Shown one piece after another: positions 24,927 to 54,688 of a DNA stretch of 64,000 bases. The position numbers were made by a program, and so were the translations under genes. Positions within the stretch are counted from its first letter, which is position 1, and each line of letters starts with the position of its first letter. The DNA is taken from positions 2,560,001 to 2,624,000 of the forward strand of contig OX638340.1 of NCBI GenBank assembly GCA_951812955.1, read 5' to 3'. This DNA comes from an uncultured Gemmatimonadota bacterium. GTDB lineage: Bacteria > JAAXHH01. Below the pieces are notes generated by a model. That model saw nothing but the letters and a program-made list of their open reading frames with translations, was not told the origin of the DNA and searched no databases.

Positions 24927-25712
24927 CTATCGGTCCTTCCGCAGGAATCCAAGTTCTTGCACCGCCCGCCGAAACCCGTCCTTCAAGACCGGCTCATCGC
25001 CGCCAACGAGAAGCAGACGCACACCTTCTTCTATCTGGCGGCGAACGTTCTCCTCGTCATCTGGTGAGCCGAGCAGGGGGTGTCCCACGGGCTTTCCCGT
25101 TCGCTGGCCGGCTTCCCGCACGCGGCGGAGCGCGTCGAGGTACTTTGGATGGTCGAACCGGAATGGAACTCCGAGGGAAATACACAGGTCCACCGGACCC
25201 ACGATACAGCCATCCACCCCCTCCACGGCCATGATGTCGTCGATGCGCTCGACGGCTTCGGCCGACTCGATTATCGGGAGATAGACCACGACGTCATCGA
25301 TCCCGGCGGTGTATTCCTCTTCAAACAACCCGTATCCCGCGGCTCGGTGCGGTCCCCACCCCCGCGTGCCCCGCGGAGGATAGCGGCAGGCGTCCGCCCC
25401 CAGCTTCGCCTCTTCCGGGGTGTTCACGAAGGGGACGACAATTCCCACTGCGCCCATGTCGAGGTATAATTTGATCAGGTCGGGATCGGTACGGGTAATC
25501 CGAACTATCGGCGCGGCTGGCGTACAGCCCGCCGCCTGGATCTGGGCCTGCACGGTAACCGGCGTTTGCGGCGCGTGCTCCGTGTCGATCAGGATCCAGT
25601 CGAAACCGGCCAGTCCGGCCAGTTCCGCGATGGCGGGGGATCCGAATCGAAGCTGTATGCCGAAGGCGGGCTTGCCTTCGGCCATCAGGTTCTTGAGGTG
25701 GCTGTGAATCAT
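24927..25712 (-). CDS. HpcH/HpaI family aldolase (2-keto-3-deoxy acid aldolase or citrate-lyase beta-like fold)
   Basis: Family-typical blocks GIQLRFGSPAIAELAGLAGFDWILIDTEHAP and RYPPRGTRGWGP. Confidence 0.7.
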   Translation of the reverse strand: MIHSHLKNLMAEGKPAFGIQLRFGSPAIAELAGLAGFDWILIDTEHAPQTPVTVQAQIQAAGCTPAAPIVRITRTDPDLIKLYLDMGAVGIVVPFVNTPEEAKLGADACRYPPRGTRGWGPHRAAGYGLFEEEYTAGIDDVVVYLPIIESAEAVERIDDIMAVEGVDGCIVGPVDLCISLGVPFRFDHPKYLDALRRVREAGQRTGKPVGHPLLGSPDDEENVRRQIEEGVRLLLVGGDEPVLKDGFRRAVQELGFLRKDR

Positions 25713-25725
25713 GGATCGTCTGCGG

Positions 25726-26520
25726 TCATGTCCTGGTCACGTCCTGGTAGAATCCCAGCTCGAAGAGGCGGTCGAGCCATCGCTGCCGTTTTGGCCTGCC
25801 ATCGGGATTGGCAAGCCAGTACGGATCGACCAGGGGATCGCCGGGTCGGTTGTACTTGGCTGTGGCCTTGCCGTTGTTCGCCCCCTGCTCGCGCGTGGTC
25901 TCGACTTCCTCCGGCGTCCTCGGATTGTTGTAGTACACGCAAGTGCACATGCGCCGGTCGCTGGATCCTCCGTAACTCGCATGCCACAACCGGAGGTCGA
26001 ATCCCACTACGTCGCCCGGTTCCGATACGCAGACATGTGACGGCACTTCCGCGACGGACAGGCCCAGACCGGGCATCACCTTTCTCAGTTCGCCATGGTA
26101 AGGATTTTGGTGCGAACCCGGGATGACGCGCAGCGCGCCGGTCTCCGGTCCCACGGGTTGGAGGTAGAAGGCGAACTTGATGCCGTACTGGTGGATACTG
26201 TGTGTATCCGGATGCCATCCCGTGTTGCCGACGTAACGGTTGGCGTCGGTCGCGATCCCCAGCGCATCTTCGCCGTAGAGCTGTTCGGCGACACCACATA
26301 ACCGGGGATCTTCCATGAGACTCGCGAAGAAGGGCGTGGATTTCCCCATCATCGTGACCCAGTGCCGGACCGAGCCGTCGAAAGGCAGGTGACGGTAAGC
26401 CATTTCCAGCCCGTGGTCGAACTCCCCGTTGATCTGGTCCAGTTCGTCCGGCGTGAAGACCTGGCGCAAGACGACAAAACCAAATGTCTTATAGTGTTGA
26501 TATTGTTGTTCGGTCAACAT
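25726..26520 (-). CDS. phytanoyl-CoA dioxygenase (PhyH) family Fe(II)/2-oxoglutarate oxygenase
   Basis: PhyH-like N-terminal block LTEQQYQHYKTFGFVVLRQVFTPDELDQI, HxD...H facial triad candidates (HPDTH ... PGSHQ). Confidence 0.65.
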   Translation of the reverse strand: MLTEQQYQHYKTFGFVVLRQVFTPDELDQINGEFDHGLEMAYRHLPFDGSVRHWVTMMGKSTPFFASLMEDPRLCGVAEQLYGEDALGIATDANRYVGNTGWHPDTHSIHQYGIKFAFYLQPVGPETGALRVIPGSHQNPYHGELRKVMPGLGLSVAEVPSHVCVSEPGDVVGFDLRLWHASYGGSSDRRMCTCVYYNNPRTPEEVETTREQGANNGKATAKYNRPGDPLVDPYWLANPDGRPKRQRWLDRLFELGFYQDVTRT

Positions 26521-26554
26521 GCCGGGCTCCCCTCCATCTCCAGGTTGAAGCGTG

Positions 26555-27271
26555 TCATATGCGGCGCAGCAGGCGCTGCAGGCGCAGCCACCAGACGATC
26601 CATACCGCCTCGTTGATCACGCCCTGGGAGAGTTTCGATGTGCCTGATCGCCGGTCTACGAAGATAATGGGGATTTCACGCAGGCGATATCCCTTTCGCC
26701 AGCACCGGAAATTCATCTCGATCTGGAAGGCGTATCCGTCGGACCGGACTTCATCCAGCTCGATGTGTTCCAATACTTCGCGGCGGAAGCACTTGTATCC
26801 GCTGGTGGTGTCCCGGATCGTCATCCCCGTGACCAGTCGAGTGTAAATGTTGGCGAAGTAGCTGAGCAGTAACCGGGACATGGGCCAGTTTACCACGTTG
26901 ATGCCGCTGATGTACCGGGATCCGATCACCACGTCGCAGGACGCGATCTCTTCGATGAACCGCGGAACCATGGCGGGATCGTGGGAAAAGTCCGCGTCCA
27001 TCTCGAATACGCAGTCCACGTCCTGTTGGATAGCGTACCTGAAACCCGCAACGTAAGCCGATCCGAGTCCGAGTTTGCCGGGTCGATGCAGGACGCTGAT
27101 CCGTTCATTCTCCGCGGCAAGTTCATCGGCCAGTTTCCCCGTCCCGTCCGGCGAGTTGTCATCCACCACGAGCACGCGGATATCCGGACTCAATGCCATT
27201 AACTCGGGCAAAAGCCGGCGGATGTTCTCGAGCTCGTTGTAGGTGGGGACGATGATCAGGGTTTTCATCAT
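26555..27271 (-). CDS. GT2 family polyprenol-phosphate sugar synthase (Dpm1/ArnC/GtrB-like)
   Basis: IIVPTYNELENI...VLVVDDNSPDGT...ISVLHRPGKLGLGSAY, the DxD-containing Dpm1-like signature; 238 aa. Confidence 0.8.
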   Translation of the reverse strand: MMKTLIIVPTYNELENIRRLLPELMALSPDIRVLVVDDNSPDGTGKLADELAAENERISVLHRPGKLGLGSAYVAGFRYAIQQDVDCVFEMDADFSHDPAMVPRFIEEIASCDVVIGSRYISGINVVNWPMSRLLLSYFANIYTRLVTGMTIRDTTSGYKCFRREVLEHIELDEVRSDGYAFQIEMNFRCWRKGYRLREIPIIFVDRRSGTSKLSQGVINEAVWIVWWLRLQRLLRRI

Positions 27272-27286
27272 TTTACGGTTCCGGTG

Positions 27287-29746
27287 TCAGGCCCGGGCCT
27301 TCAGGCGTTTTCTGATGTGCATCGCACCCGCTGAAATCAACCCGGCGAGGATCAGTGCGCTGGCGATCCGGCTTATCAGGAGGCCCGTGGCGAAGGAAGC
27401 GGGGGCGAAAGTCATCACCACGTCATGACGGCCTTCGGGTACGGCCACGGAGCGAAGGACGTAGTTGGTCTTGTGTATTTCCGCCGGCTGGCCGTCAATC
27501 TCGGCGCTCCATCCTGCCGGATAATAGATCTCGCTGAGCACCAGCAAACAAGATGAGGCCGCATCCACTGCCATCTCGATACGGTGCGGTGAGTGCAGGG
27601 TGATCTCCACGGACGAGTCGCCCGCCGGACCGAGCCGTTCCTGGAGAGGTTCTTCCACGATTGCGTATTTGCCGGGATTGAACCCCGGGTCGCTCAGCGC
27701 TTCGAAGATGGCGTCCTTCCCGGCAATGACGCGCACACTGTCCACCAGGAAGGCCCGCGGCAGCGCGTCGTCGTTCCGATACAGGTATCCACCGTCGGTT
27801 TCGGCCACGGGTGCGAGCGCGGCTTCAGGGAGCGGCTGTCGAGACACCAGGTAACGGGTATTCAGCATGTTCAGAACCGGAAAGGAACTGAGTCCCACCT
27901 GGTCCATGAGTTCCTGGTAGATGCCCAACTTGGCGGCGTGGTAGCCGCCAATACTGGATATCCCGAAGTATCCGTATTCATTCGAAGAGAACTCGGAGAG
28001 CGGCAGGATGCGGTACAGGCTTGTGTCGTCTTCCAGGGCTTTCACAATTTCGTTGTCTCGGGCGGTGTAATAGGCTTCGATCCGCGCGGGATCATCTTGG
28101 GGGTTCACGATCCGCGAGGCCACGAGCGATAGATCGATGGAGACGAGTATGCATACGCCCGCGGCAAACAGTGACGGGCTCATCTTTCGGGTGGCGAAAA
28201 GCAGCGCCGCAGCCGCGCAGAGGAACAATGCCATGGTCCACAGATCGCCCATGAACAGGTCGAATCGCATGGCGTTGAGCCTGGCATGGTAGTCCACGTT
28301 GTCCAGGAGGGCCGCGCGCGAACCATGGGCCGCATCCGCCTGCGAATAGACGCCCGTCATGAAGGACTGGAAGGAGGACTCGAATACGGTCAGTACCAGG
28401 ACCAGCAGGAGGACTCCGCCGGCTACGCAGCACAGTTTTTTCGCGAAGCTCCCCAGGCTGTCCCGGCCGGCACGTATCCGTTCGATCACCGCGTGCACGC
28501 CGTATCCCGCCAGCAGGGCTGCCGCGAACTGCAGGATCACCAGGATCATGACCGGCGCGCGGAACTTGCCGAAGAAGGGGACGAAGTGGAGCATGACGTA
28601 GGACAGGGGAGGCAGGTGCCGTCCGAAGGAGACCAGAAGGGCCAGCACGGCCGCCAGGACGAGAAACAGGGTCATGCGCGAACTTCGCAGCAAGAAGCCC
28701 GCCAGGGCCAGGACAACGACGACGACGCCCAGGTAGTTCGGGAAATCCGTGAAGGGCATTTCTCCCCAGTAGAAGAGACCGCCGAACCCGGCGAAGGAAG
28801 GGATGATGAAGGTCAGTACTTCGATGGGAGGGAACGACCAGCTCGTGGCGAAGGGGACGTTGACGCCGCTACCGCCGACTGAGAGGCCCCGAGCGGAATA
28901 CTGCGCGTATTCCTGCATGGGAAAGACCAGCACCGCCGCGACGGCGACGGCCAGGACGATACCGCCCACAAAGAGACCGGATTTTCGCAGTATCTCGCGT
29001 GCAGGAGTCCTGTCCCTCCATTCATTGATTACGGCGTATGCGGCGTACAGGCCGATCAGCATGGCCGTGTAGAAGGCGATCTGGGGATGAAAGGAACACA
29101 ACTGCGAGCCGAACGCGCCTCCGAGCAATACCATGTCGAACACCCCGCCGCGATCAAATACGCGGTAGGCTGCCAGGAAGACGAGGGGGACATGCATGAA
29201 GCAGATGAACCGGTTCGCGTGTTCCGTGGCCATCATGTGGGTGGAAAACACGAAGGCCGCCGCCGCGACGAAAGACGCGGGCCTGGAGAGCGACAAGGTT
29301 CGCGCCAGAAGAAACATGGAAACCGCGCCGAGGAGCAGGTGGAAGAAGAAACGGCCGTGCAGCGCGCTGACGAGCCGGTCCGGCAGGACGGCATTGACCA
29401 GGGCTTCGTAGCTGTATTGTAGATGGTGGTACGTGCCGCTGGCCTGGAAGGGCATGCCGCCGAAGATGTGGGGGTACCAGAGGGGCGTTTCGCCGGATCC
29501 GCTTTTAAAGTCCTGCGCGAAGCGGTCGAAGGGAATGGCCTGGCCAATGAAATCGGGCCTGATGTCCATCTTCCCGTCGATGATATAGCCGCGGTACACG
29601 AATACGGCCAGCACCGCGATGATCAGGCAGAACAGGGCGTCCTGGACCAACGGATGCAGGCTTCGGTCCGCGCGCTCCCGACGGCTATCGTCCCGTCCGC
29701 GGATTCGGCGCTGTTCAGATCGTGGTGGGTTTCGCTGCTTCGCCAT
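27287..29746 (-). CDS. large polytopic membrane protein, YfhO-like GT-C family glycosyltransferase candidate
   Basis: 819 aa; more than 12 predicted TM helices in the first ~520 aa plus a ~300-aa C-terminal soluble domain; adjacent to a Dpm1-like GT2, as in CsbB/YfhO, ArnC/ArnT and GtrB/GtrC pairs. Confidence 0.5.
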   Translation of the reverse strand: MAKQRNPPRSEQRRIRGRDDSRRERADRSLHPLVQDALFCLIIAVLAVFVYRGYIIDGKMDIRPDFIGQAIPFDRFAQDFKSGSGETPLWYPHIFGGMPFQASGTYHHLQYSYEALVNAVLPDRLVSALHGRFFFHLLLGAVSMFLLARTLSLSRPASFVAAAAFVFSTHMMATEHANRFICFMHVPLVFLAAYRVFDRGGVFDMVLLGGAFGSQLCSFHPQIAFYTAMLIGLYAAYAVINEWRDRTPAREILRKSGLFVGGIVLAVAVAAVLVFPMQEYAQYSARGLSVGGSGVNVPFATSWSFPPIEVLTFIIPSFAGFGGLFYWGEMPFTDFPNYLGVVVVVLALAGFLLRSSRMTLFLVLAAVLALLVSFGRHLPPLSYVMLHFVPFFGKFRAPVMILVILQFAAALLAGYGVHAVIERIRAGRDSLGSFAKKLCCVAGGVLLLVLVLTVFESSFQSFMTGVYSQADAAHGSRAALLDNVDYHARLNAMRFDLFMGDLWTMALFLCAAAALLFATRKMSPSLFAAGVCILVSIDLSLVASRIVNPQDDPARIEAYYTARDNEIVKALEDDTSLYRILPLSEFSSNEYGYFGISSIGGYHAAKLGIYQELMDQVGLSSFPVLNMLNTRYLVSRQPLPEAALAPVAETDGGYLYRNDDALPRAFLVDSVRVIAGKDAIFEALSDPGFNPGKYAIVEEPLQERLGPAGDSSVEITLHSPHRIEMAVDAASSCLLVLSEIYYPAGWSAEIDGQPAEIHKTNYVLRSVAVPEGRHDVVMTFAPASFATGLLISRIASALILAGLISAGAMHIRKRLKARA

Positions 29747-29878
29747 GAATATCCTTTAGCGGACTGTTTCTGCGCTTCGCAATGAATACCCTATAACGGC
29801 CTGTTGCTGCGATATGAATGGCGGGAACATCCGATTAAATCAATCGATTAAAGCAAACGGTAAATTCTGCTGGTTAAA

Positions 29879-30802
29879 TCAACGAGTATTCGAGGTGATC
29901 GGGGTAGCGAAGCCTTCCCAAATCCCTCGATGGAGCGCGCCCAGGTGGCCCCACCTGCGACGGATGACCAAGATAGCCGCCGACCGAAGATAACGATACA
30001 GAAAAAGGTAAGGCAGGAACGCGAACAGAAACTGCGGAAGCGGCACGTGTTTTCTCGCAAACAGAATCCTGCTGCGTATCATGTGACGCATATAGAATGG
30101 ACTGTTGAAACCGGCCGTCCGTGACCCCTTGTGGTGGACAACGGCCTTTGGCTCCAAAAGCAATCTATATCCGGCTTCCCGCACCTTCATTCCCCAGTCG
30201 AAGTCGTCGAAATAGCAAAAATAATCTTCGTCCATCAGTCCGACCTTCTCCAGGACAGCGCGCTTGACGAGGAGTGCAGTTCCCGTGATGTACGGCATCT
30301 CGGTCGAGGAATCGAACTGCCCCCTGTCCTCTTCCCCGTGACCCAGAAGAAACCCCTGCGCCAGCCACGGGATGGTGCGTGTACCTGCCGAGTCGAGCAC
30401 GCGTTCCTCTCCATACTTGTAGATCTTCGGTCCGGCCATGCCTATATCGCTGGAGCGTTCCGCCGCTCGAACAAGGTTGGCCAATACGTCTGGCTCCACG
30501 ACGGTGTCGTTGTTCAGCAGGAACACGTAATCGGCGTCTTTTGAAAGGGCATGGCGCATGCCCTGGTTGCTACCACGGACGAATCCCCTGTTTTCGGCGT
30601 TACGAATCAGCGTCAAAGGGAGGTTTTCACGCCCCCACCGCTCGATGGCATCAGGCGAGCCGTCTGTCGATCCATTGTCCACAACAATGACCGAAAAGGA
30701 CGGGTAGTCTATACGCGCCAGTGATTCGAGGCACTCCAGCGTATCCGCTTCCCGGTTCCAGTTGAGTATGACGATGGCGACGTGGGGAAGTGATAGACTC
30801 AT
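29879..30802 (-). CDS. GT2 family glycosyltransferase
   Basis: VAIVILNWNREADTLECLESL...VIVVDNGSTDGS...DYVFLLNNDTVV GT2 motifs; 307 aa. Confidence 0.75.
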   Translation of the reverse strand: MSLSLPHVAIVILNWNREADTLECLESLARIDYPSFSVIVVDNGSTDGSPDAIERWGRENLPLTLIRNAENRGFVRGSNQGMRHALSKDADYVFLLNNDTVVEPDVLANLVRAAERSSDIGMAGPKIYKYGEERVLDSAGTRTIPWLAQGFLLGHGEEDRGQFDSSTEMPYITGTALLVKRAVLEKVGLMDEDYFCYFDDFDWGMKVREAGYRLLLEPKAVVHHKGSRTAGFNSPFYMRHMIRSRILFARKHVPLPQFLFAFLPYLFLYRYLRSAAILVIRRRWGHLGALHRGIWEGFATPITSNTR

Positions 30803-30811
30803 AATCCAGGT

Positions 30812-32275
30812 TCAATCCGATGATTGGTGCGGAATGCCCAACTTCCTAATCCAGCCGCGAACGTATTCCTTCTCCGGCTGATCCAGCAACCGGAACGCGT
30901 ACCAGAGGTAGAGCGCCATACCCAGAATCACCAGGGCGACGCTGACCTCGATCCGATCGAAGGTCCACCTGGCCGCGCCGAAGGAGGCTGCTGAAAGGAC
31001 GATCAGGAGAATGTAGGGTTTCCAGGGGAAAAGCCGTCCTACGGTCGTGTCGAGCAGCCGGGCGTACCGGCCCAGATAGTAGATCCATCCGGCGGCGGTT
31101 CCGCACAGGGTGGCGAGTGCCGCGCCCCAGAGGCCGAAGGCCTTGATGAAGACCAGGTTGCCCGCGACGTTGACGATCAGCATGGCGGTCGCTGCCTGGA
31201 CGATGATCGCGTTGCGGTTCAGGGCCCTCGCGAGGACGTCCGGACTGTTGAAGCGGAGCAGGAGGAGCAGCGCGTAGATGCCCAGGACCCGGTGGCCCTC
31301 GAAGTAGGCGTCGGGCAGGATGATGCGGTACAGCACGTCGGAGAAGAGAAAGACGAAGATCCCCGCCGGTATGATGGCGATCATGCCGCAGGTCGAGCAC
31401 TTGTGCCACAGGGCCGCCATGGACGGATGGTCGCCGCCTTCGGCGTACCCCACGTAGGTGGAAAAGAGCACCGACCCGAACACGCTCATCAGGATGCCGG
31501 CGATGGGCAGTTCGATGGCCGATACGCTGTAGATCGCGAAGCTGGATGCGCCCAGGAAGGCGCTGATCATGATCTTGTCCAGGCTCCCGTTGACGAACGG
31601 AATGAACCCGGCGATACCCAGTCCCAGGGCGTAACGGTACTGGCCCTTGTTGTCGATACTCCGCACCCGGAAGGACAGCAGCTTCCTGTTGAGCAGGACG
31701 AGTCCGTAGAGTAGGGACTGAAAGGCCTCCAGGAGCACGATCAGGACGATGAGTTCGAAAACGGCCGTAATCAGCCCCGAAAACAGCGCGCCGGCGATGG
31801 CCGCGATGCGCAGCAGGTACTGAAACACGCGAAGACCGCTGGCCGCGGCGGTGTGTTCAGTCCCCACCAGGGCGTTGTGTGCGGCCATGTTTACGAATAA
31901 AAACAGGGCGATCAGGAGATAGGCGCCGATCTCCCGTAGATAGGGTCCCAGTTCCGTGTGAACGAGCAGGTAGGGCTTGATGAGAAGATGGAACAGCAGG
32001 AGGAGGGCCAGGAAGATCACCGCACAACTGGCCAGCGTGTTTCCCACGTATCTGCGTGCGTCCGCCGCGTATTTCCCCGATATGAAGTAGAAGACGCTCT
32101 CGATCAGCCCGGCGGCGAACAGGTACGCGAATCCGGCGGTCAGAATGCCGTACCTGTAAGGCGCCAGGTATTCCGGATCGAAGAAATGGGCGACGACGAT
32201 CGACTGGAGTACCTGGAGCGCGCTCGCACCGAGCAGCGCGGTATAGAGTATGACCGCCGCGTTTCGTTTAGACAT
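30812..32275 (-). CDS. polysaccharide/oligosaccharide flippase, MOP superfamily (Wzx-like)
   Basis: 487 aa with about 12-14 hydrophobic segments; Wzx-like N-terminal organization; operon context with GT genes. Confidence 0.6.
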   Translation of the reverse strand: MSKRNAAVILYTALLGASALQVLQSIVVAHFFDPEYLAPYRYGILTAGFAYLFAAGLIESVFYFISGKYAADARRYVGNTLASCAVIFLALLLLFHLLIKPYLLVHTELGPYLREIGAYLLIALFLFVNMAAHNALVGTEHTAAASGLRVFQYLLRIAAIAGALFSGLITAVFELIVLIVLLEAFQSLLYGLVLLNRKLLSFRVRSIDNKGQYRYALGLGIAGFIPFVNGSLDKIMISAFLGASSFAIYSVSAIELPIAGILMSVFGSVLFSTYVGYAEGGDHPSMAALWHKCSTCGMIAIIPAGIFVFLFSDVLYRIILPDAYFEGHRVLGIYALLLLLRFNSPDVLARALNRNAIIVQAATAMLIVNVAGNLVFIKAFGLWGAALATLCGTAAGWIYYLGRYARLLDTTVGRLFPWKPYILLIVLSAASFGAARWTFDRIEVSVALVILGMALYLWYAFRLLDQPEKEYVRGWIRKLGIPHQSSD

Positions 32276-32313
32276 GGTCCCGTCAGGCGGTGGACCTGCA
32301 CCGGCGGTAAGGC

Positions 32314-33696
32314 TCAGACCCCGTCCCTCAGTATCTCCGCGACGGCGGCGACGGCGCGGTCCGCCTCGTCGAGCGTGTTATAGATATGTGGGGAAAGCCG
32401 GACGTTGGGCCCCATGCCCGCGCCGGCCACATGGTACGTGTCGTAGAGCTTTGCGAAGACCTTGCGCGGGTCGAGATCACCTGGTTTGAAGATGACCACG
32501 CCGCCGGAGAGCGCGGGGTCCATGGACGTGGAGAGTGTCACGCCGGGCAGTTCGGTAAGGCCTTCCTTGATGGCCGTGGCCACCTGCCGCATGCGGGCCT
32601 CCACGCGGTCCGGTCCGATCTTCTCGTGGAAATCGACCCCCCGGCCCGTGGCCGTCAGCGCGGCGTCGTCCCGCTGGCCGAGAACTTCGTACTTTCGGGC
32701 GCTATCCACGTCGTCCCGCCATCCGGCGCTCACGATACTGGGCCAGACGGCGTCCTGGCTGTCTTTCCGGACGTACAGCACGCCGACTTCCTTAGGCCCC
32801 ATGAACCACTTGTGGGCGCTTCCGGAGTACGCGTCGCAGCCCATGTCGGCGAGATCGATCTTCAGGGCCCCGAAACTCTGGGCGCCGTCGACGAGGGAAA
32901 ACACGCCCCGTTCCCGCGCCGTCGCACAGAGCTGCCTGGCCGGCATGGAAAGTCCCGTCGTGTTGGACACGTGGGTGAAGGACATCACCTTCGTCGCCGG
33001 GGTGTACGCCCGTTCGAAGGCATCGATGATTTCGTCCTCGCCGCCTGGAATCAAGGGAACCGACACGTAGTTGATCTTAAATCCGTAACGTCTGGACTTG
33101 ACCTCCCACGCCGATTTGTTCGAGGGATGGTTCAGGTCGGACAGGAGCACCTCGTCACCCGTCTGGAGGTGGTAACCGGAACTGATGGCGTTGTTGGCTT
33201 CGCTCGTGTTCCGCACCAGTGCGATTTCATCGGGATGAGCACCCAGGAGCCGCGCCATCTTCTCGCGGGTATCCTCCCGGATCTGCCGGTATTTGATCCT
33301 GTTCTGGAAGGACGCGTCGTAATCCAGGTCGCGGGTATACTTGAAGACCGCTTCCATCACGGGAAAGGGTGACGGGCAAAGGTTGGCGGCGTTCATCAGG
33401 GCCAGGTTGTCCCGGAGGAGGAACTGGTTCCGGACCGCGTGCCAGTACCGTTCGTCGCCGGGGTCTGTGCCGGAGACGGCCGTGTCCAGGTCCTGTGGAG
33501 GCGAAGCGGCGGTGGAGGTGCCGTAACCGGCGACGAGGGCGCCGCCCGCGGCGATACCGCCGGCCAGCCGTTTCATGAACGATCGGCGGGATTCCTGCCA
33601 CGCCGACTCTGGAATACTCTCGATTTTCAATTCGTCCTGGATCATCCTTAAGCCTCCGGATGTGAGGGATAGGGACGCCGCGGAGCGGGATCCCAT
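32314..33696 (-). CDS. class V (fold type I) PLP-dependent aminotransferase/desulfurase-like enzyme with predicted Tat signal peptide
   Basis: Twin-arginine motif SRRSFMKRLAGGIAAGGALVAG near the N-terminus; PLP-lysine motif SGSAHKWFMGP; isopenicillin-N-epimerase/cysteine desulfurase-like blocks. Confidence 0.65.
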   Translation of the reverse strand: MGSRSAASLSLTSGGLRMIQDELKIESIPESAWQESRRSFMKRLAGGIAAGGALVAGYGTSTAASPPQDLDTAVSGTDPGDERYWHAVRNQFLLRDNLALMNAANLCPSPFPVMEAVFKYTRDLDYDASFQNRIKYRQIREDTREKMARLLGAHPDEIALVRNTSEANNAISSGYHLQTGDEVLLSDLNHPSNKSAWEVKSRRYGFKINYVSVPLIPGGEDEIIDAFERAYTPATKVMSFTHVSNTTGLSMPARQLCATARERGVFSLVDGAQSFGALKIDLADMGCDAYSGSAHKWFMGPKEVGVLYVRKDSQDAVWPSIVSAGWRDDVDSARKYEVLGQRDDAALTATGRGVDFHEKIGPDRVEARMRQVATAIKEGLTELPGVTLSTSMDPALSGGVVIFKPGDLDPRKVFAKLYDTYHVAGAGMGPNVRLSPHIYNTLDEADRAVAAVAEILRDGV

Positions 33697-33714
33697 CGCT
33701 AGAAATCCACTTGG

Positions 33715-34572
33715 CTAGAAATCCACCGCAATTCCGAGGTGGGCTGTAATGAGATCGGTGGTCGACTTGGTTATGTTGAGTTCGGCCGTACCCGACCTGC
33801 GGACGATGTCGCCCCGCTTCAGGTAGTCGGCCTCGGACCCGTCATGGTAGCGCATCCTGACATCCAGGGATACGGACCGCACGGTGCGGTTCTGCGACGT
33901 CCGGTCTTCGCCGGCTCCCCACACCTCGATCAGCACCCCGCCGCCCACACCCTTGGTAAATGCGAAATCATCGAGGTTCGTGGAACTGGCGATCTCCTCT
34001 CCGCTGAGACGGGGAAGGTTCTCGATCGCCGTACTCGTGAAAAGGTAGTGGAAGCCCACGACGCCTTCTACGTAGAAACGCAGTGGGGCGGTGGTACCGG
34101 TCATCAGACGAAGAAAGGCGTTCATCGAAAAGATGTTGTTCTCGGTGACCACGTCGACGAGGACGTCGGGGATGGTAAGGCTGAATTGCTCGGTGCGCCG
34201 CTCGTGGCCGTAGATCATGTAACCCAGGTCTAGGCCAATCACGGCCGGTGTACGGGGGATTATGTAGCCCACGAACCCGGACACGCCGATCCCCGGGTTC
34301 TTGACATTGTCGCCGAATTCGCCCGTCGGAAATCCGCCGAGGATGCCGATCCCGGTGATAACGACGGGGGGCACGTCCGCGGTTTCCCCTTCCTGCGCGT
34401 TGGCCGGCGCCGGACGCGCCAGGAGTACCAGTCCGACAAGGGCCGCTATGAACGTGGGATAGGTTGCGCGTCGAGTTATTCGGCTAAATATCCGGCGGAA
34501 AATGCGCTGCATTGGGAAGGTGTGTATTCGAGGTTGTGATTTATGCATGGCAGTTCGGGCCTTCCTGATCAA
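33715..34572 (-). CDS. putative outer-membrane beta-barrel protein; start uncertain
   Basis: Signal peptide ending ...LLARPAPANAQ, alternating amphipathic beta-strands, C-terminal ...GIAVDF aromatic terminus typical of OMPs. Confidence 0.35.
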   Translation of the reverse strand: MIRKARTAMHKSQPRIHTFPMQRIFRRIFSRITRRATYPTFIAALVGLVLLARPAPANAQEGETADVPPVVITGIGILGGFPTGEFGDNVKNPGIGVSGFVGYIIPRTPAVIGLDLGYMIYGHERRTEQFSLTIPDVLVDVVTENNIFSMNAFLRLMTGTTAPLRFYVEGVVGFHYLFTSTAIENLPRLSGEEIASSTNLDDFAFTKGVGGGVLIEVWGAGEDRTSQNRTVRSVSLDVRMRYHDGSEADYLKRGDIVRRSGTAELNITKSTTDLITAHLGIAVDF

Positions 34573-34585
34573 CCGCTTGTCGGAC

Positions 34586-35119
34586 TCAGGACGGTAGCTC
34601 TCCGATTTTGGCGAACACGGCGGACCACCGCGTTCGGTGACTGTCCTCTATAAAGTCGGGTACGAATCCCAGGCCGAGATAGGTCCTGATGGCCGGCACG
34701 CGAAAATCATCCGTACCCAGAAAGGCGGCCTGGTAACCATGATCACGCATATAATGAAGCACGGCCAGGGTTACGAGGCGCCCCAATCCCCGCCCCCGGT
34801 GGGCGGGTTTCGCGCATACCATGTGAACCTGCGCGGCGTTGACCCCTTCGGGTGGATTGTCGTAGGCGCAGGCCGTGGCCACGCCCTCCTCGGATTTCGT
34901 TACGAAGAAGCAGCCGTCCGGCAGAAACGGTTCCCGGCCGGTCACTTCCTCCCGGCACTTCTCGACGGTCCAGCCCGTGCCGATGCCCGTGTTCATGATC
35001 TCGCACCAGGCTGCTTCGTCGCCGGGCCGGTAGGTCCTCAGCGCATACCCCGCCGGCACGCCGATTCCCGGAAGGTTATTCAGGTCGGGGCGTACCATCC
35101 GAAGCTGACGTTCAGGCAT
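34586..35119 (-). CDS. GNAT family N-acetyltransferase
   Basis: Acetyl-CoA binding motif AHRGRGLGRLVTLAVLHY; 177 aa. Confidence 0.7.
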   Translation of the reverse strand: MPERQLRMVRPDLNNLPGIGVPAGYALRTYRPGDEAAWCEIMNTGIGTGWTVEKCREEVTGREPFLPDGCFFVTKSEEGVATACAYDNPPEGVNAAQVHMVCAKPAHRGRGLGRLVTLAVLHYMRDHGYQAAFLGTDDFRVPAIRTYLGLGFVPDFIEDSHRTRWSAVFAKIGELPS

Positions 35120-35133
35120 GGACGCCCCGTCCT

Positions 35134-35901
35134 CTACACGTCACATCCGACGCTCCGCAGGTGCGCCACCGAATCCGCCACGCGCCGGCAGGTCTCGTCC
35201 TCGTCAAGCGATTCGCCTTCCACGCCTTCGATTTCCATGGTGAAAGGCCCATAGAACCCGTGGCCGTTCAACCGGTCGAAAACCGCCTTGAAATCGACGA
35301 TTCCCACGCCGAAGGTCGGGAAACACCAGGTCTTGTAACTGCCGTCCGTATCCTTGAGATGCATGCTGCCGATGTAGTCGATGACCTTAACCATCTCGTC
35401 GACGTGGTCCACGTCCCGGTTGTAGTAGTGGATGTTGGCCGTGTCGTAATTCACTCGGATGTTGGGGTGATCGACGCCGCGCATGGTCTCCACCGCGACA
35501 GCCGCGTTGGTGATCAGGTCGGGATGGGTTTCCATGCCGATGGTGATCCCGTACTCGGCGGCCTTTATCCCCGCGCGGTGCAACCGCTCGTAGACCACTT
35601 TCTTGTCCAGTTCCCCGGCCTGCACGCTCACGAAGAGCAATCCGGCGCCCAGGGCCGCGGCGGCATCCAGGTGCGGGGTCAGCCGCGCGTCCACGTCGTC
35701 GTGCTCGACTTCCACCGGACACTGCAGACTGCTGGCCGACAGACCGTGACGTTCGAGCCTGGCCTTGACCTCGTCTATCCGGTCCGGCGCGGGCGCGTCG
35801 ATTTCCACGTGATGAACACCGATCGTGGGCAGATGGGCATAGGCGGAATCGCTGAATTTTCCGTAGCTTGCCGTTCGGCACGCAAGCAGGTTGGCGGGCA
35901 T
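35134..35901 (-). CDS. sugar phosphate isomerase/epimerase (xylose isomerase-like TIM barrel)
   Basis: 255 aa; the alpha/beta barrel pattern of the AP endonuclease 2 / xylose isomerase-like family. Confidence 0.6.
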   Translation of the reverse strand: MPANLLACRTASYGKFSDSAYAHLPTIGVHHVEIDAPAPDRIDEVKARLERHGLSASSLQCPVEVEHDDVDARLTPHLDAAAALGAGLLFVSVQAGELDKKVVYERLHRAGIKAAEYGITIGMETHPDLITNAAVAVETMRGVDHPNIRVNYDTANIHYYNRDVDHVDEMVKVIDYIGSMHLKDTDGSYKTWCFPTFGVGIVDFKAVFDRLNGHGFYGPFTMEIEGVEGESLDEDETCRRVADSVAHLRSVGCDV

Positions 35902-35998
35902 AAGGATCCTTCTTTCGGGAAGCGTTACGTGTGCGGACGGGATGCGTACCTTTCAAAATATAACCGAAGGGTACGAGGGGGTCAAGATATCGTACCGG

Positions 35999-37474
35999 TC
36001 AGATGCCCCGATTTCCCGCTAACCATTTCATCAGGCCTTCAGCGGGCAATTCGGATTTCAGGATGGGCGTCCGTACGCCCTGGGTCCGCAGCAGGGCTTC
36101 GGCGCCCTGGTAACCGCTGCGCACCGCGCTTTCCATGGTAGCCGGCCAGCCCGTCTGTACCCAGTCGCCGGCGAGGAAGAAATTGGAAAGGGGACTGGAT
36201 GGACCGGGGCGCAGTGCGTCGCAACCGGGGTTGGGCGCGAACGTCGCCCTGCCCTCCTTGACGACGATGGCCTTGAGCAGTTCTGCCTGGCGTACGGCGG
36301 GCAGCAGGGACCTGAGATCTTCCATGGCCTGATCGATGATCATCTGTCGCGGCATTTTCATCCATTCATCGGAAGCACTGACTACGAGTCCGAGATAGGC
36401 TCCGTCGTTTTCCATGGCGTTGGTCCCGTCGTTTTCCACGGAGTTGGCTCCGGAGTGCCGATTGGACTGGTTGAATATCCACTGTATCCTCCTTCCGATC
36501 ACCGCGGCGTAGTCCAGTTCCGTCACGGGCCGGTCGAACCAGACGTGGACGGCCGTGATGGGAGAAACCGACAGCCCGGCAAGCATCGCGAAGTAGGGAT
36601 TCGAGGCTTGGCTTTGCGGCAGCAGCCGGCACAAAACATCGAATGGCAGGGCCGAAAGGTATGCCCCGGCCTCGACGGTCGAACCGTCCTGCAGCGAGAT
36701 GGAAGCCACCTTGCCGCCGTGGACGGCAATGCCGGTAACGCCCCGGTTGAACACGACGCGGCCGCCCCGCCGTTCGATGTAATCTATGCACGGCGCGTAC
36801 AGGTCTCCCAGCGGAACGGCGGGCAGCCCCACCTCGTACCCTCGGCGATTGATCAGAAAGGCCCGAACGGCCGTCCCGATTCCGTAATCGGCATCGATGT
36901 CGTCCAGTTCATCGTTGAGCGCACTGATTAGAAAGGGTTTCCAGAAGGCTTCGATGGCCCGCTTCGTTGCGCCGTGGGCTAGAAGCCAGGCAGACATGGA
37001 AACCGGAGACGGTGCTTCGGCGGCCTGATGTGTTTCCGGATAGCCGGTATTCCGTGATCTCATGACGTGGCGGACCATGCCGGCCACGGTGCGGACGATC
37101 GACAGCTTGTCCCGGATTCCCATCGTTTTAAGCCGGAGGAACGATGGAAGCAGGTGCAGGGGCGCGGGGAGACCCGAGGGCCCGATGACCGAAACGCGGT
37201 TGGACTCGTCGATGAATGGAATGGTCTCGTGAAAGTCGATATGGTTCGCGACGCCGAGACGGTCGTAGAAGTCCAGGAGGTTAACACAGCAGCCCAGGAG
37301 CACGTGCTGGCAGTTGTCCACCCGCTCGCCGCTTGACGGGTGTATGAAGGAGGTGGCGCGGCCGCCCAGGATTGGACGTCTTTCGTACAGTTCGACCTCG
37401 AAACCGGCATCGGCCAGCGCAACCGCGCCGGCCAGTCCAGCCAGCCCGCCACCGATTACGATTACCTGGCTCAT
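35999..37474 (-). CDS. hpnE: hydroxysqualene dehydroxylase (FAD-dependent amine-oxidase fold); start at MSQVIVIGGG, overlapping the hpnD stop by 4 nt
   Basis: FAD dinucleotide-binding VIVIGGGLAGLAGAVALADAGFEVELYERRPILGGRA; phytoene-desaturase-like length; directly downstream of two squalene/phytoene-synthase-family genes. Confidence 0.7.
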   Translation of the reverse strand: MSQVIVIGGGLAGLAGAVALADAGFEVELYERRPILGGRATSFIHPSSGERVDNCQHVLLGCCVNLLDFYDRLGVANHIDFHETIPFIDESNRVSVIGPSGLPAPLHLLPSFLRLKTMGIRDKLSIVRTVAGMVRHVMRSRNTGYPETHQAAEAPSPVSMSAWLLAHGATKRAIEAFWKPFLISALNDELDDIDADYGIGTAVRAFLINRRGYEVGLPAVPLGDLYAPCIDYIERRGGRVVFNRGVTGIAVHGGKVASISLQDGSTVEAGAYLSALPFDVLCRLLPQSQASNPYFAMLAGLSVSPITAVHVWFDRPVTELDYAAVIGRRIQWIFNQSNRHSGANSVENDGTNAMENDGAYLGLVVSASDEWMKMPRQMIIDQAMEDLRSLLPAVRQAELLKAIVVKEGRATFAPNPGCDALRPGPSSPLSNFFLAGDWVQTGWPATMESAVRSGYQGAEALLRTQGVRTPILKSELPAEGLMKWLAGNRGI

Positions 37475-38406
37475 ACGCGCTTTCGGATCAGCGCCCGGGC
37501 CGTGATGGAGATTTTCTTCCATGGGGACAGGCCGATGCGCTGGCTATACACGTCGTACTGGCGACGGGGGATTTCTTCAAGGCACGCCCGGTAGATGCCG
37601 ATCATGGCCGCCAGACACGCCCTGCTTGAGAACTGAACCTTCGGAAGGAGCGGCAGCGCTGCGTCGTAGTAGCTTCTGGCGCGTTCCACCTGGAATTCCA
37701 TCAGTCGCCGGAACGAATCGTCTAAAAGTCCGTTCCGCAGACGTTCCTCCGGGTACCCGAAGGCGTCAAGGTCCTCCTGCGGCAGGTAGATACGGCCCAT
37801 CCCCGCGTCCTCCCTCAGGTCGCGCAGTATATTTGTCAGCTGAAAGGCGATGCCACAGGACTCGGCGTGTTTTTTGGCTTCCGCGCCATTGAATCCGAAG
37901 ATGTGTATGCACACCAGTCCGACGGCGGAAGCCACGCGGTAGCAGTACTGGTAAAGTTCTTCGAAGGTGGCGTAACGCGTCACCGTAAGGTCCATTTGCG
38001 CGCCGTCGATAATGGCGTCGAAGTACGCTCTCGGGATGTCGTATCTCCCCACCGTGTCCCTGAATGCCGGCAACAGCCCGCGGACGTCGGGCGGTGTTTC
38101 GCCATAGGCGTCGGCCGGTGGTCCGTCATATGCGTCGGGCGGTGGTCCGTCATAGGCGCGGTCCAGGGACTCGCGGCAGGCGTTCAACCGGTTTTCCTTG
38201 TCCGCCTCCCCGGCCTCCTCGTCGACGATGTCGTCGCAGTAGCGCATGAAGGCGTACACGGCGCACATGGCCCGTCGCCGTTCAGCCGGCAGGACGATAA
38301 AGGAATAGTAGAAGTTCTTAGCCCTCGATTTCGCGATTTCGCGGCAGAAATCATAGGAGCGCTTCAACGATTCCGGATCGGCAGATTGTTTTTTCACAGG
38401 GTTCAT
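37471..38406 (-). CDS. hpnD: presqualene diphosphate synthase (squalene/phytoene synthase family) with an in-frame proline-rich insertion
   Basis: Trans-isoprenyl diphosphate synthase head-to-head motifs (YSFIVLPAERRRAMCAVYAFMRYCDDIVDE, second Asp-rich motif). Insertion AYDGPPPDAYDGPPADAYGETPPDV. Confidence 0.75.
   Translation of the reverse strand: MNPVKKQSADPESLKRSYDFCREIAKSRAKNFYYSFIVLPAERRRAMCAVYAFMRYCDDIVDEEAGEADKENRLNACRESLDRAYDGPPPDAYDGPPADAYGETPPDVRGLLPAFRDTVGRYDIPRAYFDAIIDGAQMDLTVTRYATFEELYQYCYRVASAVGLVCIHIFGFNGAEAKKHAESCGIAFQLTNILRDLREDAGMGRIYLPQEDLDAFGYPEERLRNGLLDDSFRRLMEFQVERARSYYDAALPLLPKVQFSSRACLAAMIGIYRACLEEIPRRQYDVYSQRIGLSPWKKISITARALIRKRV
38086..38157. repeat. 24-nt tandem repeat x3 inside hpnD (gtcggccggtggtccgtcatatgc and variants) encoding a DAYDGPP(P/A) repeat on the minus strand
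   Basis: Direct reading. Confidence 0.85.
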
Positions 38407-38475
38407 GACAACGGCGTTCCATCGTTACGTACAACGAGCACGGTTCGACGAGTACGGTTCGACGCGCACGACCCA

Positions 38476-39435
38476 CTAAGGGGTCGCGGACGGTCCGGTC
38501 CGGTTCCAGATCCGTTTCAGTGCGTATTTCACAAACAGGCTGGTCTTTCGGGCGGGCGACAGGGTGGGCCGACTGGACAGCACGTCGTAACGCCGTCTTT
38601 CGATCTGGTCGAGCAGGGCGGAGCCACAGCGGTTGAACAGTTCGATGTCCAGCCGGACCCGCCCGTCCAACATCCCGCACAACCCGAGCCCCTCATCGAA
38701 CAGCGCTCGCGTCCTGTTCACCTGGTACGCCATCAGTCTCCTGAAACGCTCGTCGACGACCCCGGCCTCGAGGTCCGCCTCGGTGTAATGGTACCGATCC
38801 AGGTCCTCCTGGGGCAAGTAGATCCTGCCTTTTTCCAGGTCCACCCTGACGTCCTGCCAGAAGTTGGCCAGCTGGAGCGCGGTACACGTAGCGTCGGAAA
38901 GGACCTGGCGTTCATTGTCCCGGTGGCCGCACAGGTAGAGCACGAGGTGGCCCACCGGATTGGCGGAGTACCGACAGTATTCGAGCACATCCGCGTAGGT
39001 CCTGTAACGCGTTACGACCTGGTCTTGCCGGAACGCGGTCAGCAAGTCTCGAAACGGGGTTATGGGTATCTCGAATCGGTCGATCGTCTCCCGGAGGGCG
39101 ATGAATACCGGATGCCGGGCGCTACCGTCGTAACAGGCCTGCAACTCGGCGTCCCACCAATCGAGCAGTTCCAGGGAAAGGCCGGTATCGCCGGTTTCGT
39201 CGGCGAGGTCGTCGGACCACCGGCAGTAGGCGTAGACATGGTAGAAGTGCTGCCGCAGCGCGGTGGGCAGGAACCGGGAAACGACAATGAAATTCTCGTA
39301 GTGCTGGCGTGCGAGGTGGCTGCAGTACCGGGTAGCGGACGCCAGGGAGGCGTCGCCGGCGCCGGGCAGCGCGTCGAGGGCGAGGTGATCGAACCGGCGC
39401 ATGGCTTCAGGCAGGTAGTCGGGTAGCTGGGACAT
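38476..39435 (-). CDS. hpnC: hydroxysqualene synthase (squalene/phytoene synthase family)
   Basis: ENFIVVSRFLPTALRQHFYHVYAYCRWSDDLADE and downstream Asp-rich motif; 319 aa; first gene of the hpnCDE trio. Confidence 0.75.
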   Translation of the reverse strand: MSQLPDYLPEAMRRFDHLALDALPGAGDASLASATRYCSHLARQHYENFIVVSRFLPTALRQHFYHVYAYCRWSDDLADETGDTGLSLELLDWWDAELQACYDGSARHPVFIALRETIDRFEIPITPFRDLLTAFRQDQVVTRYRTYADVLEYCRYSANPVGHLVLYLCGHRDNERQVLSDATCTALQLANFWQDVRVDLEKGRIYLPQEDLDRYHYTEADLEAGVVDERFRRLMAYQVNRTRALFDEGLGLCGMLDGRVRLDIELFNRCGSALLDQIERRRYDVLSSRPTLSPARKTSLFVKYALKRIWNRTGPSATP

Positions 39436-52191: not shown

Positions 52192-52248
52192 TTTTGGACT
52201 CGGATCGTCTGTGTGTTCGGTCTCTTGCTATGCCGCGAACCGCGGCGT

Positions 52249-52330
52249 CCATTGGACTGAGGCGGCCGACCATAGCCCCCCGGCGGCCATCCATAGCCCC
52301 CCGGCGGCCATTGGTCTGAGGCGAATGGCC
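52249..52330. repeat. nested repeat between ccmF and rpiA: ccattggactgaggcg - catagccccccggcggccat x2 - ccattggtctgaggcg
   Basis: Direct reading. Confidence 0.85.
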
Positions 52331-52339
52331 TTACCGACT

Positions 52340-53050
52340 TCAGCTCCTTCGATCCACTTCGATTCGTCCCTCGCCGGAGATGCTCCCGATCAGAACTTCG
52401 GTGGCCAGTCCGACGAAAAGACCGTTTTCCAGGATGCCGGGTATGTTGTTGAGCGTGCTTTCCATTCCGACGGGGTCGTCGATACCATCGAATCGGGCGT
52501 CTACGACCATGTTCCCCTGGTCCGTGATGACCGGTCCGTCCTTTTGAGCCGCCATGCGCAGCACGGGTTCCCCGCCCAGCGCTTCGACGGCCCGCAACAC
52601 GGGTCGTACGGCCATGGGAAGGACTTCCAGCGGCACGGGGCACTTCGATCCCAGCCGGTCGACCAGTTTCGATTCGTCCACGATGACGATGAACCGATCG
52701 GCCATGCCGTCCACGATCTTCTCGCGAAGATGGGCGGCCCCGCGGCCCTTTATCAGGTTCATATCGGGATCTACCTCGTCCGCGCCGTCCACGGCGATAT
52801 CGACCCGGTCCACATCGTCCGGCGTGAACGTGGGAATGGCGTTTTTTCGGGCCTGCACCGACGCGTCGAAGGAGGTGGGAATGCCCTGGATTCGAAGGTC
52901 CTCGTCCCGCACGCGCCGTCCCAGTTCCTCGATCATGAACACCGCCGTCGAGCCCGTGCCCAGTCCGACCACGTCCCCGTGCCGGACCATCCGGGCGGCC
53001 TCGACGCCAACGGTTTGCTTCATCTTACGGGTCAGTTCTTCGGATGGCAT
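52340..53050 (-). CDS. rpiA: ribose-5-phosphate isomerase A (start at internal MPSEELTRK)
   Basis: [30 protein letters not shown] catalytic blocks. Confidence 0.85.
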
Positions 53051-53256
53051 GGCCTGGTTCCCGGGATTCGAGCCGCGTGAACGACAGCGTCCCAAGATAA
53101 GCGGGAACGCCGGGTAAAGTCAACTGATTCCCGTTCTCCTGGAGTCGAGTCCGAATGTCGGCTGGCAGGAATGCACGGGATGGGTCGGCTGGTGATACCC
53201 GGCTTTGCAGGAGCCCGTCCGTGATGCTGGACGGGAAACAGGGCGCGGCGCTTCAT

Positions 53257-53796
53257 TCAGTCGGAACTGCGTCGGAAGGCCATCTGGTTACCGCTGGGGA
53301 AGAAGATCGTGAGAAGGTCTTCTTCGATGGTAATGGTGCAGGGCTCGGAAGGCGCGTCCTCGGCGTCCTTCGGTCTCACCTTCATCGACAGGTCGCTGGC
53401 CTCGAAACCTTCGACCGCATGGCCGCCGGAGAGGTTGTACAGGTGCCGGAAGGTCAGTTTGTCGCCGTCCAGGGTGTAGGTTCCCCCTTCTCCCGAACCC
53501 CGCCGGGGTCCTTCGTCGGTGAAGATGAAGAAGAGGACCGACCAGTCCTTTTTGGTGAACGTGATCAGGCCGGTCAATTCGTGGACCGGTCCGGACTTGA
53601 GCCGGTACGTTTCCGGTTGCCAGGAGCCGCGGATATCAAGCGGTCCGGCCGCGGATTGTGCAGGCGTGTTCGCGGTAGCGTTCGTTTCGGCCGCGGATTG
53701 TGCAGGTGTGTTTGCGGCGGCGGTCGTTACGGCGGCGCCCAGTACCAGGAACGCGGCCAGGGAAATAAGTAGACTCCAGCGCATGGTTGTCCTCAC
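53257..53796 (-). CDS. small secreted protein of unknown function with duplicated ANTPAQSAA motif
   Basis: Signal peptide MRWSLLISLAAFLVLGAAVTTAAA; 42-nt tandem duplication at 53647-53730; no recognisable catalytic motif. Confidence 0.4.
   Translation of the reverse strand: MRTTMRWSLLISLAAFLVLGAAVTTAAANTPAQSAAETNATANTPAQSAAGPLDIRGSWQPETYRLKSGPVHELTGLITFTKKDWSVLFFIFTDEGPRRGSGEGGTYTLDGDKLTFRHLYNLSGGHAVEGFEASDLSMKVRPKDAEDAPSEPCTITIEEDLLTIFFPSGNQMAFRRSSD
53647..53730. repeat. 42-nt tandem duplication inside the secreted protein gene
   Basis: ggccgcggattgtgcaggcgtgttcgcggtagcgttcgtttc / ggccgcggattgtgcaggtgtgtttgcggcggcggtcgttac. Confidence 0.85.
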
Positions 53797-54680: not shown

Positions 54681-54688
54681 GGCCGGTC

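Follow-up and report, generated by a model that had tools for sequence, protein, structure and literature searches.

A probable four-gene transmembrane glycosylation module with a YfhO-type GT-C transferase in an uncultured Gemmatimonadota bacterium

Multi-component transmembrane glycosylation systems were reviewed by Rismondo et al. (2021), and their type (b) is represented by GacI/GacJ/GacK/GacL of Streptococcus pyogenes, in which a GacL-type glycosyltransferase of the GT-C fold adds a sugar to the wall polysaccharide outside the membrane (PMC8035078). Systems that use a YfhO protein include CsbB/GtcA/YfhO of Bacillus subtilis and Staphylococcus aureus and Lmo2550/GtcA/Lmo1079 of Listeria (PMC8035078, PMC7389260), while in the archaeon Haloferax volcanii the AglD/AglR/AglS set comprises a Dpm1-like dolichyl phosphate (Dol-P)-hexose synthase, a protein resembling the MOP (multidrug/oligosaccharidyl-lipid/polysaccharide) and Wzx exporters that is implicated in flipping the monophosphate-linked sugar, and a polytopic transferase (PMC3871713). 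This study focused on a gene cluster in a stretch of 64,000 nucleotides (nt) from an uncultured Gemmatimonadota bacterium (assembly GCA_951812955.1, contig OX638340.1, positions 2,560,001 to 2,624,000), referred to here as the window. Four neighbouring genes, designated MOP-487, GT2-307, YfhO-819 and GT2-238 after the family and length in amino acids (aa) of their products, probably encode a multi-component transmembrane (periplasmic) glycosylation system of a diderm bacterium of the FCB (Fibrobacteres–Chlorobi–Bacteroidetes) group, as judged from sequence comparisons and structure models. A first-pass annotation had joined these four and a fifth gene, specifying a pyridoxal phosphate (PLP) enzyme with a twin-arginine translocation (Tat) signal, into one coherent unit. 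Its five minus-strand open reading frames (ORFs) were placed exactly, and all five are real genes: the guanine-plus-cytosine (GC) content at third codon positions is 0.67–0.83, as expected for real genes in a genome of 61% GC, and the three proteins for which homologues were searched (YfhO-819, MOP-487 and the PLP enzyme) each have many that are conserved.

Predicted fold and a conserved residue together establish YfhO-819 as a member of the GT-C superfamily of glycosyltransferases, with a modelled fold that is not transporter-like. The protein matches Pfam YfhO (PF09586) with 83 bits against a gathering cut-off of 28.5, in two stretches of which the better is C-terminal (residues 710–792), and a precomputed PF09586 match is present in most of the 120 homologues listed for it. 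The only NCBIfam matches, to PgfM1 (29 bits, cut-off 1400) and PgfM2 (25 bits, cut-off 1500), are weak and confined to the C-terminal part. Comparison with the Protein Data Bank (PDB), by single sequence and by profile, gave nothing meaningful and no solved relative. An AlphaFold model built with 36 homologues reached a mean predicted local distance difference test score (pLDDT) of 87 and a predicted TM-score (pTM) of 0.84, and when its fold was searched only GT-C enzymes were matched (STT3B, Pmt4, AftD, PglB and ArnT); the best Foldseek TM-score was 0.47, so there is no close solved structure. According to the model, the protein has a basic cytoplasmic N-terminus, about 12 transmembrane helices, a beta-rich periplasmic domain (approximately residues 547–780) and a final C-terminal transmembrane helix. 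D65 is conserved without exception in the 36 sequences compared, the most divergent of which is 30% identical; it is the sole invariant acidic residue of the first loop, EL1 (residues 52–131), where it sits 14 residues past the first transmembrane helix (33–51). Given the strongly basic N-terminus, the predicted topology places EL1, and D65 with it, in the periplasm. The WWDxG motif of oligosaccharyltransferases is absent, with no WWD anywhere in the protein, and it contains no DxD motif, no MIR domain of the kind found in protein O-mannosyltransferases (PMT) and no Pfam PMT match. The proposal of a YfhO-type GT-C enzyme therefore holds: the Pfam family is matched above its threshold, an acidic residue stands invariant in a loop predicted to be periplasmic, and it is the GT-C fold, rather than a transporter family, that the model resembles.

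The gene downstream of YfhO-819 encodes an enzyme whose class is well established from its sequence relatives, a membrane-peripheral polyprenyl-phosphate monosaccharide synthase of the Dpm1 type, that is, resembling dolichol-phosphate mannose synthase (DPMS). GT2-238 matches the Pfam family 2 glycosyltransferases (GT2) with 112 bits, and its best solved relative is the DPMS of Pyrococcus (5mlz, E-value 1e-32), followed at some distance by ArnC (1e-9) and GtrB (sll0501; 1e-5), which refines the earlier description of the protein as Dpm1/ArnC/GtrB-like. Residues 2–223 align to 23–240 of 5mlz, with the VVDDxSPDxT and MDAD motifs aligned and the DxD motif (DAD) intact. The protein consists of the catalytic GT-A domain and a short amphipathic C-terminal tail, ending where the interface helices of DPMS start, and it has no hydrophobic or transmembrane segment (maximum Kyte-Doolittle value 1.22). 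Pyrococcus DPMS, GtrB, ArnC and CsbB have a transmembrane anchor of their own; the state of GT2-238, devoid of such helices, resembles that of human DPM1, GacI and mycobacterial Ppm1-D2. No NCBIfam model was matched at the equivalog level, the scores being 76 bits for AglJ (cut-off 325), 60 for Dol-P-hexose transferase (375), 57 for PpgS (370) and 42 for ArnC (529), all so far under the cut-offs that the sugar cannot be named from the sequence.

The flippase was less easily recognized, as MOP-487 has no Pfam or NCBIfam match at E ≤ 0.01, a phmmer search of the PDB was equally negative, and hhalign comparisons with two Polysacc_synt proteins were weak (probabilities of 41% and 5%). With these direct family scans having failed, its identity comes from an exhaustive profile search and a fold search. 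When 1.8 billion representatives were searched with a profile of 13 orthologues, 3202 proteins were retrieved, and E was 1e-10 or lower for 1347 of these; ten full-length matches were sampled, and all ten pass the gathering scores of both Polysacc_synt_3 and Polysacc_synt, while eight match MurJ, seven of them above the cut-off. The AlphaFold 2 model is moderately confident (pLDDT 65, pTM 0.62), and is most similar to MurJ (6nc6; E-value 2e-9, TM-score 0.71) and WzxE (9g9n; TMt 0.76), with MATE transporters next. By profile homology and modelled fold, MOP-487 is a divergent MOP-superfamily flippase of the PST/Wzx type, predicted to have about 14 helices, in agreement with the family first proposed for it. 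The fourth protein, GT2-307, had been noted simply as a second GT2 enzyme, which its Pfam score of 94 bits bears out. It is without a transmembrane segment and all its NCBIfam matches are under cut-off; its relatives suggest a cytoplasmic GT2 of the rhamnosyltransferase/MftF/GlfT1-like sort. On the grounds of co-occurrence, it probably builds a lipid-linked acceptor glycan: homologues of 50–55% identity lie immediately upstream of YfhO in two relatives (L004 and L089), and the best distant homologues (34–41%) are found in the same loci as the GT2-238 orthologue.

Thirteen proteins of the window were compared with 90 loci encoding YfhO relatives, and MOP genes were sought in these loci by running a hidden Markov model from the MOP family against all ORFs. 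Where YfhO identity is 64% or higher, relatives share synteny over all 13 genes of the neighbourhood, which means that adjacency there says nothing on function. Distant loci are more informative. In eight of them, from Eisenbacteria, Zixibacteria and unclassified metagenome-assembled genomes (MAGs), an orthologue of GT2-238 (57–65% identity) lies downstream of a YfhO gene whose product is only 29–38% identical, at a distance of up to about 130 nt in seven cases and about 1 kb in the eighth (L020). Of the 63 distant loci with sufficient flank, 28 have a MOP gene directly upstream of YfhO and in the same direction, and 49 of 76 have one within 10 kb of it; three loci (L080, L083 and L084) have the compact triad MOP–YfhO–GT2-238. 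Thirty-five loci carry upstream of YfhO a full-length synthase of the ArnC/GtrB/PgfS type with two C-terminal transmembrane helices (214 bits to the ArnC model), indicating that a lipid-sugar synthase accompanies this YfhO subfamily even when it is not orthologous. The logic of a GT2 synthase paired with a GT-C transferase, on which the first-pass annotation had relied, is thus seen again in distant phyla with either kind of synthase. At intermediate distance, a MOP-487 orthologue of 55% identity heads an expanded locus (L094), and this and other expanded relatives (listed at the end of Table 1) have the composition of typical surface-polysaccharide loci, of which the window appears to hold a minimal version. 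One of them, L089, has two YfhO paralogues of 821 and 779 aa on either side of its GT2-237 gene; neither a MOP nor a PLP gene was found in the 16.8 kb examined there.

The unit supported by these comparisons consists of four genes and not five, since the linkage of glycosyltransferase, MOP and YfhO genes is kept at a distance and that of the PLP enzyme is not. The earlier suggestion of a coherent five-gene unit accordingly stands for four members and fails for the last. That the latter is a class V PLP enzyme with a Tat signal is well founded: it matches Pfam Aminotran_5 with 161 bits, its best solved match is PvdN (5i90, 4e-35), and it displays a Tat motif (SRRSFMK) followed by a hydrophobic stretch as well as the PLP-lysine motif SAHK. 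Among its homologues, 98 of 120 have a Tat-like motif and 119 of 120 have SxHK. A database protein of 443 aa is 100% identical to it, from which the start is most likely M18 of the ORF (coordinate 33645). The reading in which all five genes form one unit, and a periplasmic PLP enzyme tailors an amino-sugar or amino-acid substituent of the exported glycan, could appeal to the position of the gene, co-directional with and 38 nt from the MOP gene, to the persistence of this adjacency in every close relative with a YfhO identity of 64% or more, and to PvdN as a precedent. PvdN is a Tat-exported periplasmic class V PLP enzyme that tailors a secreted metabolite, pyoverdine, and has in common with the window protein the class V fold, the PLP lysine and the Tat motif. 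Yet those same relatives are syntenic over all 13 genes, which makes the adjacency uninformative, and outside them homologues of the PLP enzyme at 50–68% identity lie beside an amidohydrolase and squalene-hopene cyclase, beside pyruvate:ferredoxin oxidoreductase (PFOR) or among unrelated genes, never beside glycosyltransferase genes. Conversely, relatives at 52–62% YfhO identity have the glycosyltransferase genes with no PLP match in the sequence examined; L004, L018 and L089 keep the glycosyltransferase and YfhO genes in this way. The PLP family itself has more than 4000 members, the score against the NCBIfam PvdN model is 153 bits for a cut-off of 650, and none of the approximately 50 window ORFs scanned is a pyoverdine gene. 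A five-gene unit is consequently very unlikely: as far as gene context can tell, the PLP enzyme adjoins the glycosylation module and is no conserved part of it. As a separate observation, the 68%-identical homologue adjoins the squalene-hopene cyclase gene in L091.

The four genes suggest a pathway of the following kind. On the cytoplasmic face, GT2-238 would load polyprenyl (undecaprenyl) phosphate with a single monosaccharide, taken from a nucleotide sugar. The lipid-linked sugar would then be flipped, most likely by the adjacent MOP-487, as has been proposed for GacK and AglR, after which YfhO-819 could transfer it by way of D65 onto an extracytoplasmic acceptor held by the beta-rich C-terminal domain. 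GT2-307 might have a part in making this acceptor, as a glycan assembled on a lipid carrier at the cytoplasmic face, and MOP-487 may flip that too. Since pairs and triads homologous to these genes are found within Wzx-type polysaccharide loci, an envelope polysaccharide (O-antigen, LPS (lipopolysaccharide)-core-like or exopolysaccharide) is the most likely acceptor. An envelope glycoconjugate or proteins had both been offered before; the context of relatives, and that context only, narrows the choice towards polysaccharide.

Two other accounts of the module centre on what YfhO-819 transfers and to what. It could take as its donor an oligosaccharide linked to undecaprenyl diphosphate, built by GT2-307 and others and flipped by MOP-487, thereby acting as an oligosaccharyltransferase, ligase or polymerase in place of Wzy or WaaL, with GT2-238 being only a side branch or part of another pathway. 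MOP genes are indeed the commonest immediate neighbours of this YfhO subfamily (28 of 63 loci), and the ORFs scanned in the window, L055 and L080 include no candidate for Wzy or WaaL. Set against this are the lack of both WWDxG and DxD in YfhO-819, the repeated linkage of YfhO to a monophosphate-sugar synthase (eight Dpm1-type and 35 ArnC-type loci), which a user of diphosphate-linked glycans would not need, and the fact that characterised YfhO proteins use C55-P-monosaccharides (PMC8035078), so that such a role is unlikely. Alternatively, periplasmic or outer-membrane proteins might be O-glycosylated, either in the manner of PMT enzymes or as in the streptococcal Pgf system, in which the GT2 protein PgfS works with the YfhO-family proteins PgfM1 and PgfM2. 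A minimal locus with neither priming enzyme nor polymerase is what a protein acceptor would lead one to expect, and PgfM1 and PgfM2 are the sole NCBIfam matches of YfhO-819, although these are weak, C-terminal and far under their cut-offs (29 against 1400 and 25 against 1500). With no MIR domain and no PMT match in the protein, and with the pairs and triads of relatives situated inside large polysaccharide loci (having phosphoglycosyl transferase, GT4, GT9, sulfotransferase and TagF-like genes), protein glycosylation appears quite improbable.

The preferred reading, transfer of a flipped monosaccharide to an envelope polysaccharide, has several points against it. No Bac_transf priming enzyme was found in the 64-kb window by tblastn with a Bac_transf enzyme, and the window ORFs that were family-scanned include no candidate for Wzy, WaaL or GtrA (WecA-type primers and GtrA had no specific search); Pfam scans of about 40 other ORFs of the window revealed housekeeping genes only. 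The pathway of the acceptor would thus be encoded elsewhere in the genome, or the acceptor would be non-polymeric. A partner like GacJ or DPM3 is not visible in the gaps between the genes, and GT2-238 is itself without a membrane anchor. A Dpm1-type partner occurs in only eight of the 71 distant loci with downstream flank. The substrate of MOP-487 may be either a polyprenyl-phosphate-monosaccharide or a diphosphate-linked oligosaccharide, and the operon structure is a reading of gene spacing. A more novel reading is that of a self-contained machine with a layout not described before, in which the synthase, lacking transmembrane helices, docks on the cytoplasmic face of YfhO-819 (perhaps on the basic and disordered tail at its N-terminus) rather than on an anchor like GacJ or DPM3, the divergent MOP protein, in place of one of the GtrA type, flips the monophosphate sugar, and the acceptor is a non-polymeric envelope molecule, such as the LPS core, a lipoprotein or an outer-membrane protein, as the lack of a priming enzyme or polymerase with the genes would suggest; in broader terms, MOP and YfhO would be the standard pair for periplasmic glycosylation in FCB-group diderms. 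This version is considered unlikely.

The module lies in the inner part of a co-directional run of 13 genes (24927–39435), as set out in Table 1. The gaps across the five-gene stretch are, in coordinate order, 15, 132, 9 and 38 nt, and 11 of the 12 neighbouring pairs of the run are 9–132 nt apart, the remaining pair (hpnE/hpnD) overlapping by 52 nt. A scan for consensus promoters and terminators gave the same counts as shuffled sequence, and no signal above chance was present in the 132-nt spacer either, so transcription units are not readable from the DNA. The nearest database relatives are MAGs labelled Gemmatimonadota or Latescibacterota. The site of the 132-nt spacer holds extra genes in relatives, a methyltransferase in L013 and a GT4 enzyme in L094. 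In two close relatives, extra ORFs of 246 aa (L012) and 162 aa (L015) without a Pfam match lie between the MOP and GT2-307 genes, pointing to an insertion hot spot inside the module, and in the MAG locus L017 two overlapping ORFs (178 and 181 aa) take the place of a single GT2-307 homologue, the result either of a frameshift that has left a pseudogene or of faulty assembly.

Table 1. Features of the window and of related loci. Positions without a locus prefix refer to the 64-kb window.
Feature	Position	Strand	Description
GT2-238	26555..27271	minus	238 aa, Pfam GT2
YfhO-819	27287..29746	minus	819 aa, Pfam YfhO
D65 codon of YfhO-819	29552-29554	minus	invariant acidic residue
Spacer GT2-307/YfhO-819	29747..29878	minus	132 nt
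GT2-307	29879..30802	minus	307 aa, Pfam GT2
MOP-487	30812..32275	minus	487 aa, MOP by profile search and fold
Tat-PLP enzyme	ORF 32314..33696; likely gene 32314..33645	minus	ORF 460 aa, likely gene 443 aa, Pfam Aminotran_5
Run upstream of PLP gene	to 39435		285-aa outer-membrane-protein-like, GNAT, xylose-isomerase-like TIM barrel, hpnE/hpnD/hpnC-like squalene-synthesis genes
Run downstream of GT2-238	to 24927		PhyH dioxygenase, HpcH aldolase
285-aa protein	33715-34572	minus	no family match
GNAT gene	34586-35119		neighbour of the 285-aa gene
hpnE-, hpnD-, hpnC-like genes	35999-39435	minus	amine oxidase and two SQS_PSY proteins
917-aa protein	40351-43104	plus	Trans_reg_C, nSTAND1, membrane C-terminus
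Putative ORFs	52151-53080, 53787-54692, 55298-57126, 60592-61521		five ORFs, 285-326 aa, no Pfam match at E ≤ 1e-5
L012 extra ORF	L012:8139-8879		246 aa, between MOP and GT2-307
L015 extra ORF	L015:8196-8684		162 aa, between MOP and GT2-307
L017 split GT2-307 homologue	L017:9010-9956		two overlapping ORFs
L094			55-56% identity; MOP, AsnB-like amidotransferase, sulfotransferase, DegT aminotransferase, acetyltransferase, GT2, GT4, YfhO, GT2
L013			methyltransferase between GT2-307 and YfhO
L089	L089:4377-10006		formyltransferase, GT2, GT2, YfhO, GT2-237, second YfhO
L080			adds GT4, GT9, phosphodiesterases, GT2::Bac_transf priming enzyme
L055			adds sulfotransferase, TagF-like enzyme

Several neighbours merit a brief description. 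The hpnE-, hpnD- and hpnC-like genes are upstream in the same run. A hopanoid or squalene link to the glycosylation module was considered and rejected, as the window lacks a squalene-hopene cyclase and hpn genes accompany YfhO only in close relatives; like the PLP enzyme, hpnCDE and the rest of the flanking genes are most likely neighbours with no relation to the module. The 285-aa protein begins with what resembles a signal peptide and ends in ...GIAVDF, a C-terminus of the kind typical for outer-membrane beta-barrels, and both it and the adjacent GNAT gene are missing from a relative of 64% identity (L001). Beyond the run, an OmpR-type winged-helix DNA-binding domain is joined to an nSTAND1 NTPase in the 917-aa protein, whose C-terminus is a glycine-rich membrane region of several helices. 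Elsewhere the window is housekeeping (ruvABC, queA, ispDF, parAB, the atp operon, ribB, ccmF and RNase Y), apart from five putative ORFs with no Pfam match at E ≤ 1e-5.

A search of full-text literature returned no paper that mentions YfhO together with Gemmatimonadota. If the assignment is right, periplasmic glycosylation of the YfhO type, so far characterised only in Firmicutes, extends to Gemmatimonadota/Latescibacterota, Eisenbacteria, Zixibacteria, Marinimicrobia and KSB1, diderm phyla in which the GT-C gene is habitually linked to a MOP flippase and to a synthase of either the Dpm1 or the ArnC type. The adjacency of MOP and YfhO genes across FCB phyla could serve as a practical rule for annotating genes of surface-glycan decoration, and the four genes offer a compact candidate for heterologous reconstitution. 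The module is otherwise ordinary and well conserved, and reveals no new principle.

Compared with the described systems, the window module is closest in architecture to GacI/GacJ/GacK/GacL, which likewise has clustered genes, a GT-A/GT2 synthase without transmembrane helices, a flippase of the Wzx/MOP type instead of GtrA, and a GT-C enzyme (PMC8035078). They differ in that GacL is a GT-C of the PMT_2 type, whereas that of the window is of the YfhO type, and in that GacI requires the small membrane protein GacJ, for which no gene is visible in the module; the host here is also an FCB-group diderm, and an additional cytoplasmic GT2 gene stands between those of the flippase and the GT-C enzyme. 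With CsbB/GtcA/YfhO, the module shares the Pfam family of its transferase (PF09586) and the placement of the GT-C gene next to that of its polyprenyl-phosphate-sugar synthase. CsbB, however, is a GtrB-type GT2 with transmembrane helices and GT2-238 is DPMS/Dpm1-like and lacks them, GtcA is a small flippase of the GtrA type in contrast to a MOP protein of 14 predicted helices, and the C-terminal part accounts for most of the detectable likeness of YfhO-819 to Firmicute YfhO proteins (the PgfM1/2 models). The acceptors of the Firmicute systems are teichoic acids, and to our knowledge these have not been described from diderm bacteria. In the more distant AglD/AglR/AglS system, a sugar is similarly attached to a preassembled glycan on the outer side of the membrane, and the best NCBIfam matches of GT2-238 are haloarchaeal (AglJ and Dol-P-hexose transferase), though all are under cut-off; that system is archaeal, uses a dolichol carrier, has as its acceptor an N-linked glycan on the S-layer protein, and relies on AglS, which is outside the YfhO family. 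From the Gram-negative ArnC/ArnE-F/ArnT and GtrB/GtrA/GtrC systems, the module is set apart by a Dpm1-type synthase without transmembrane helices, by a MOP-type flippase in place of the small EmrE/GtrA-type proteins, and by the large C-terminal periplasmic domain of YfhO-819, which ArnT does not have.

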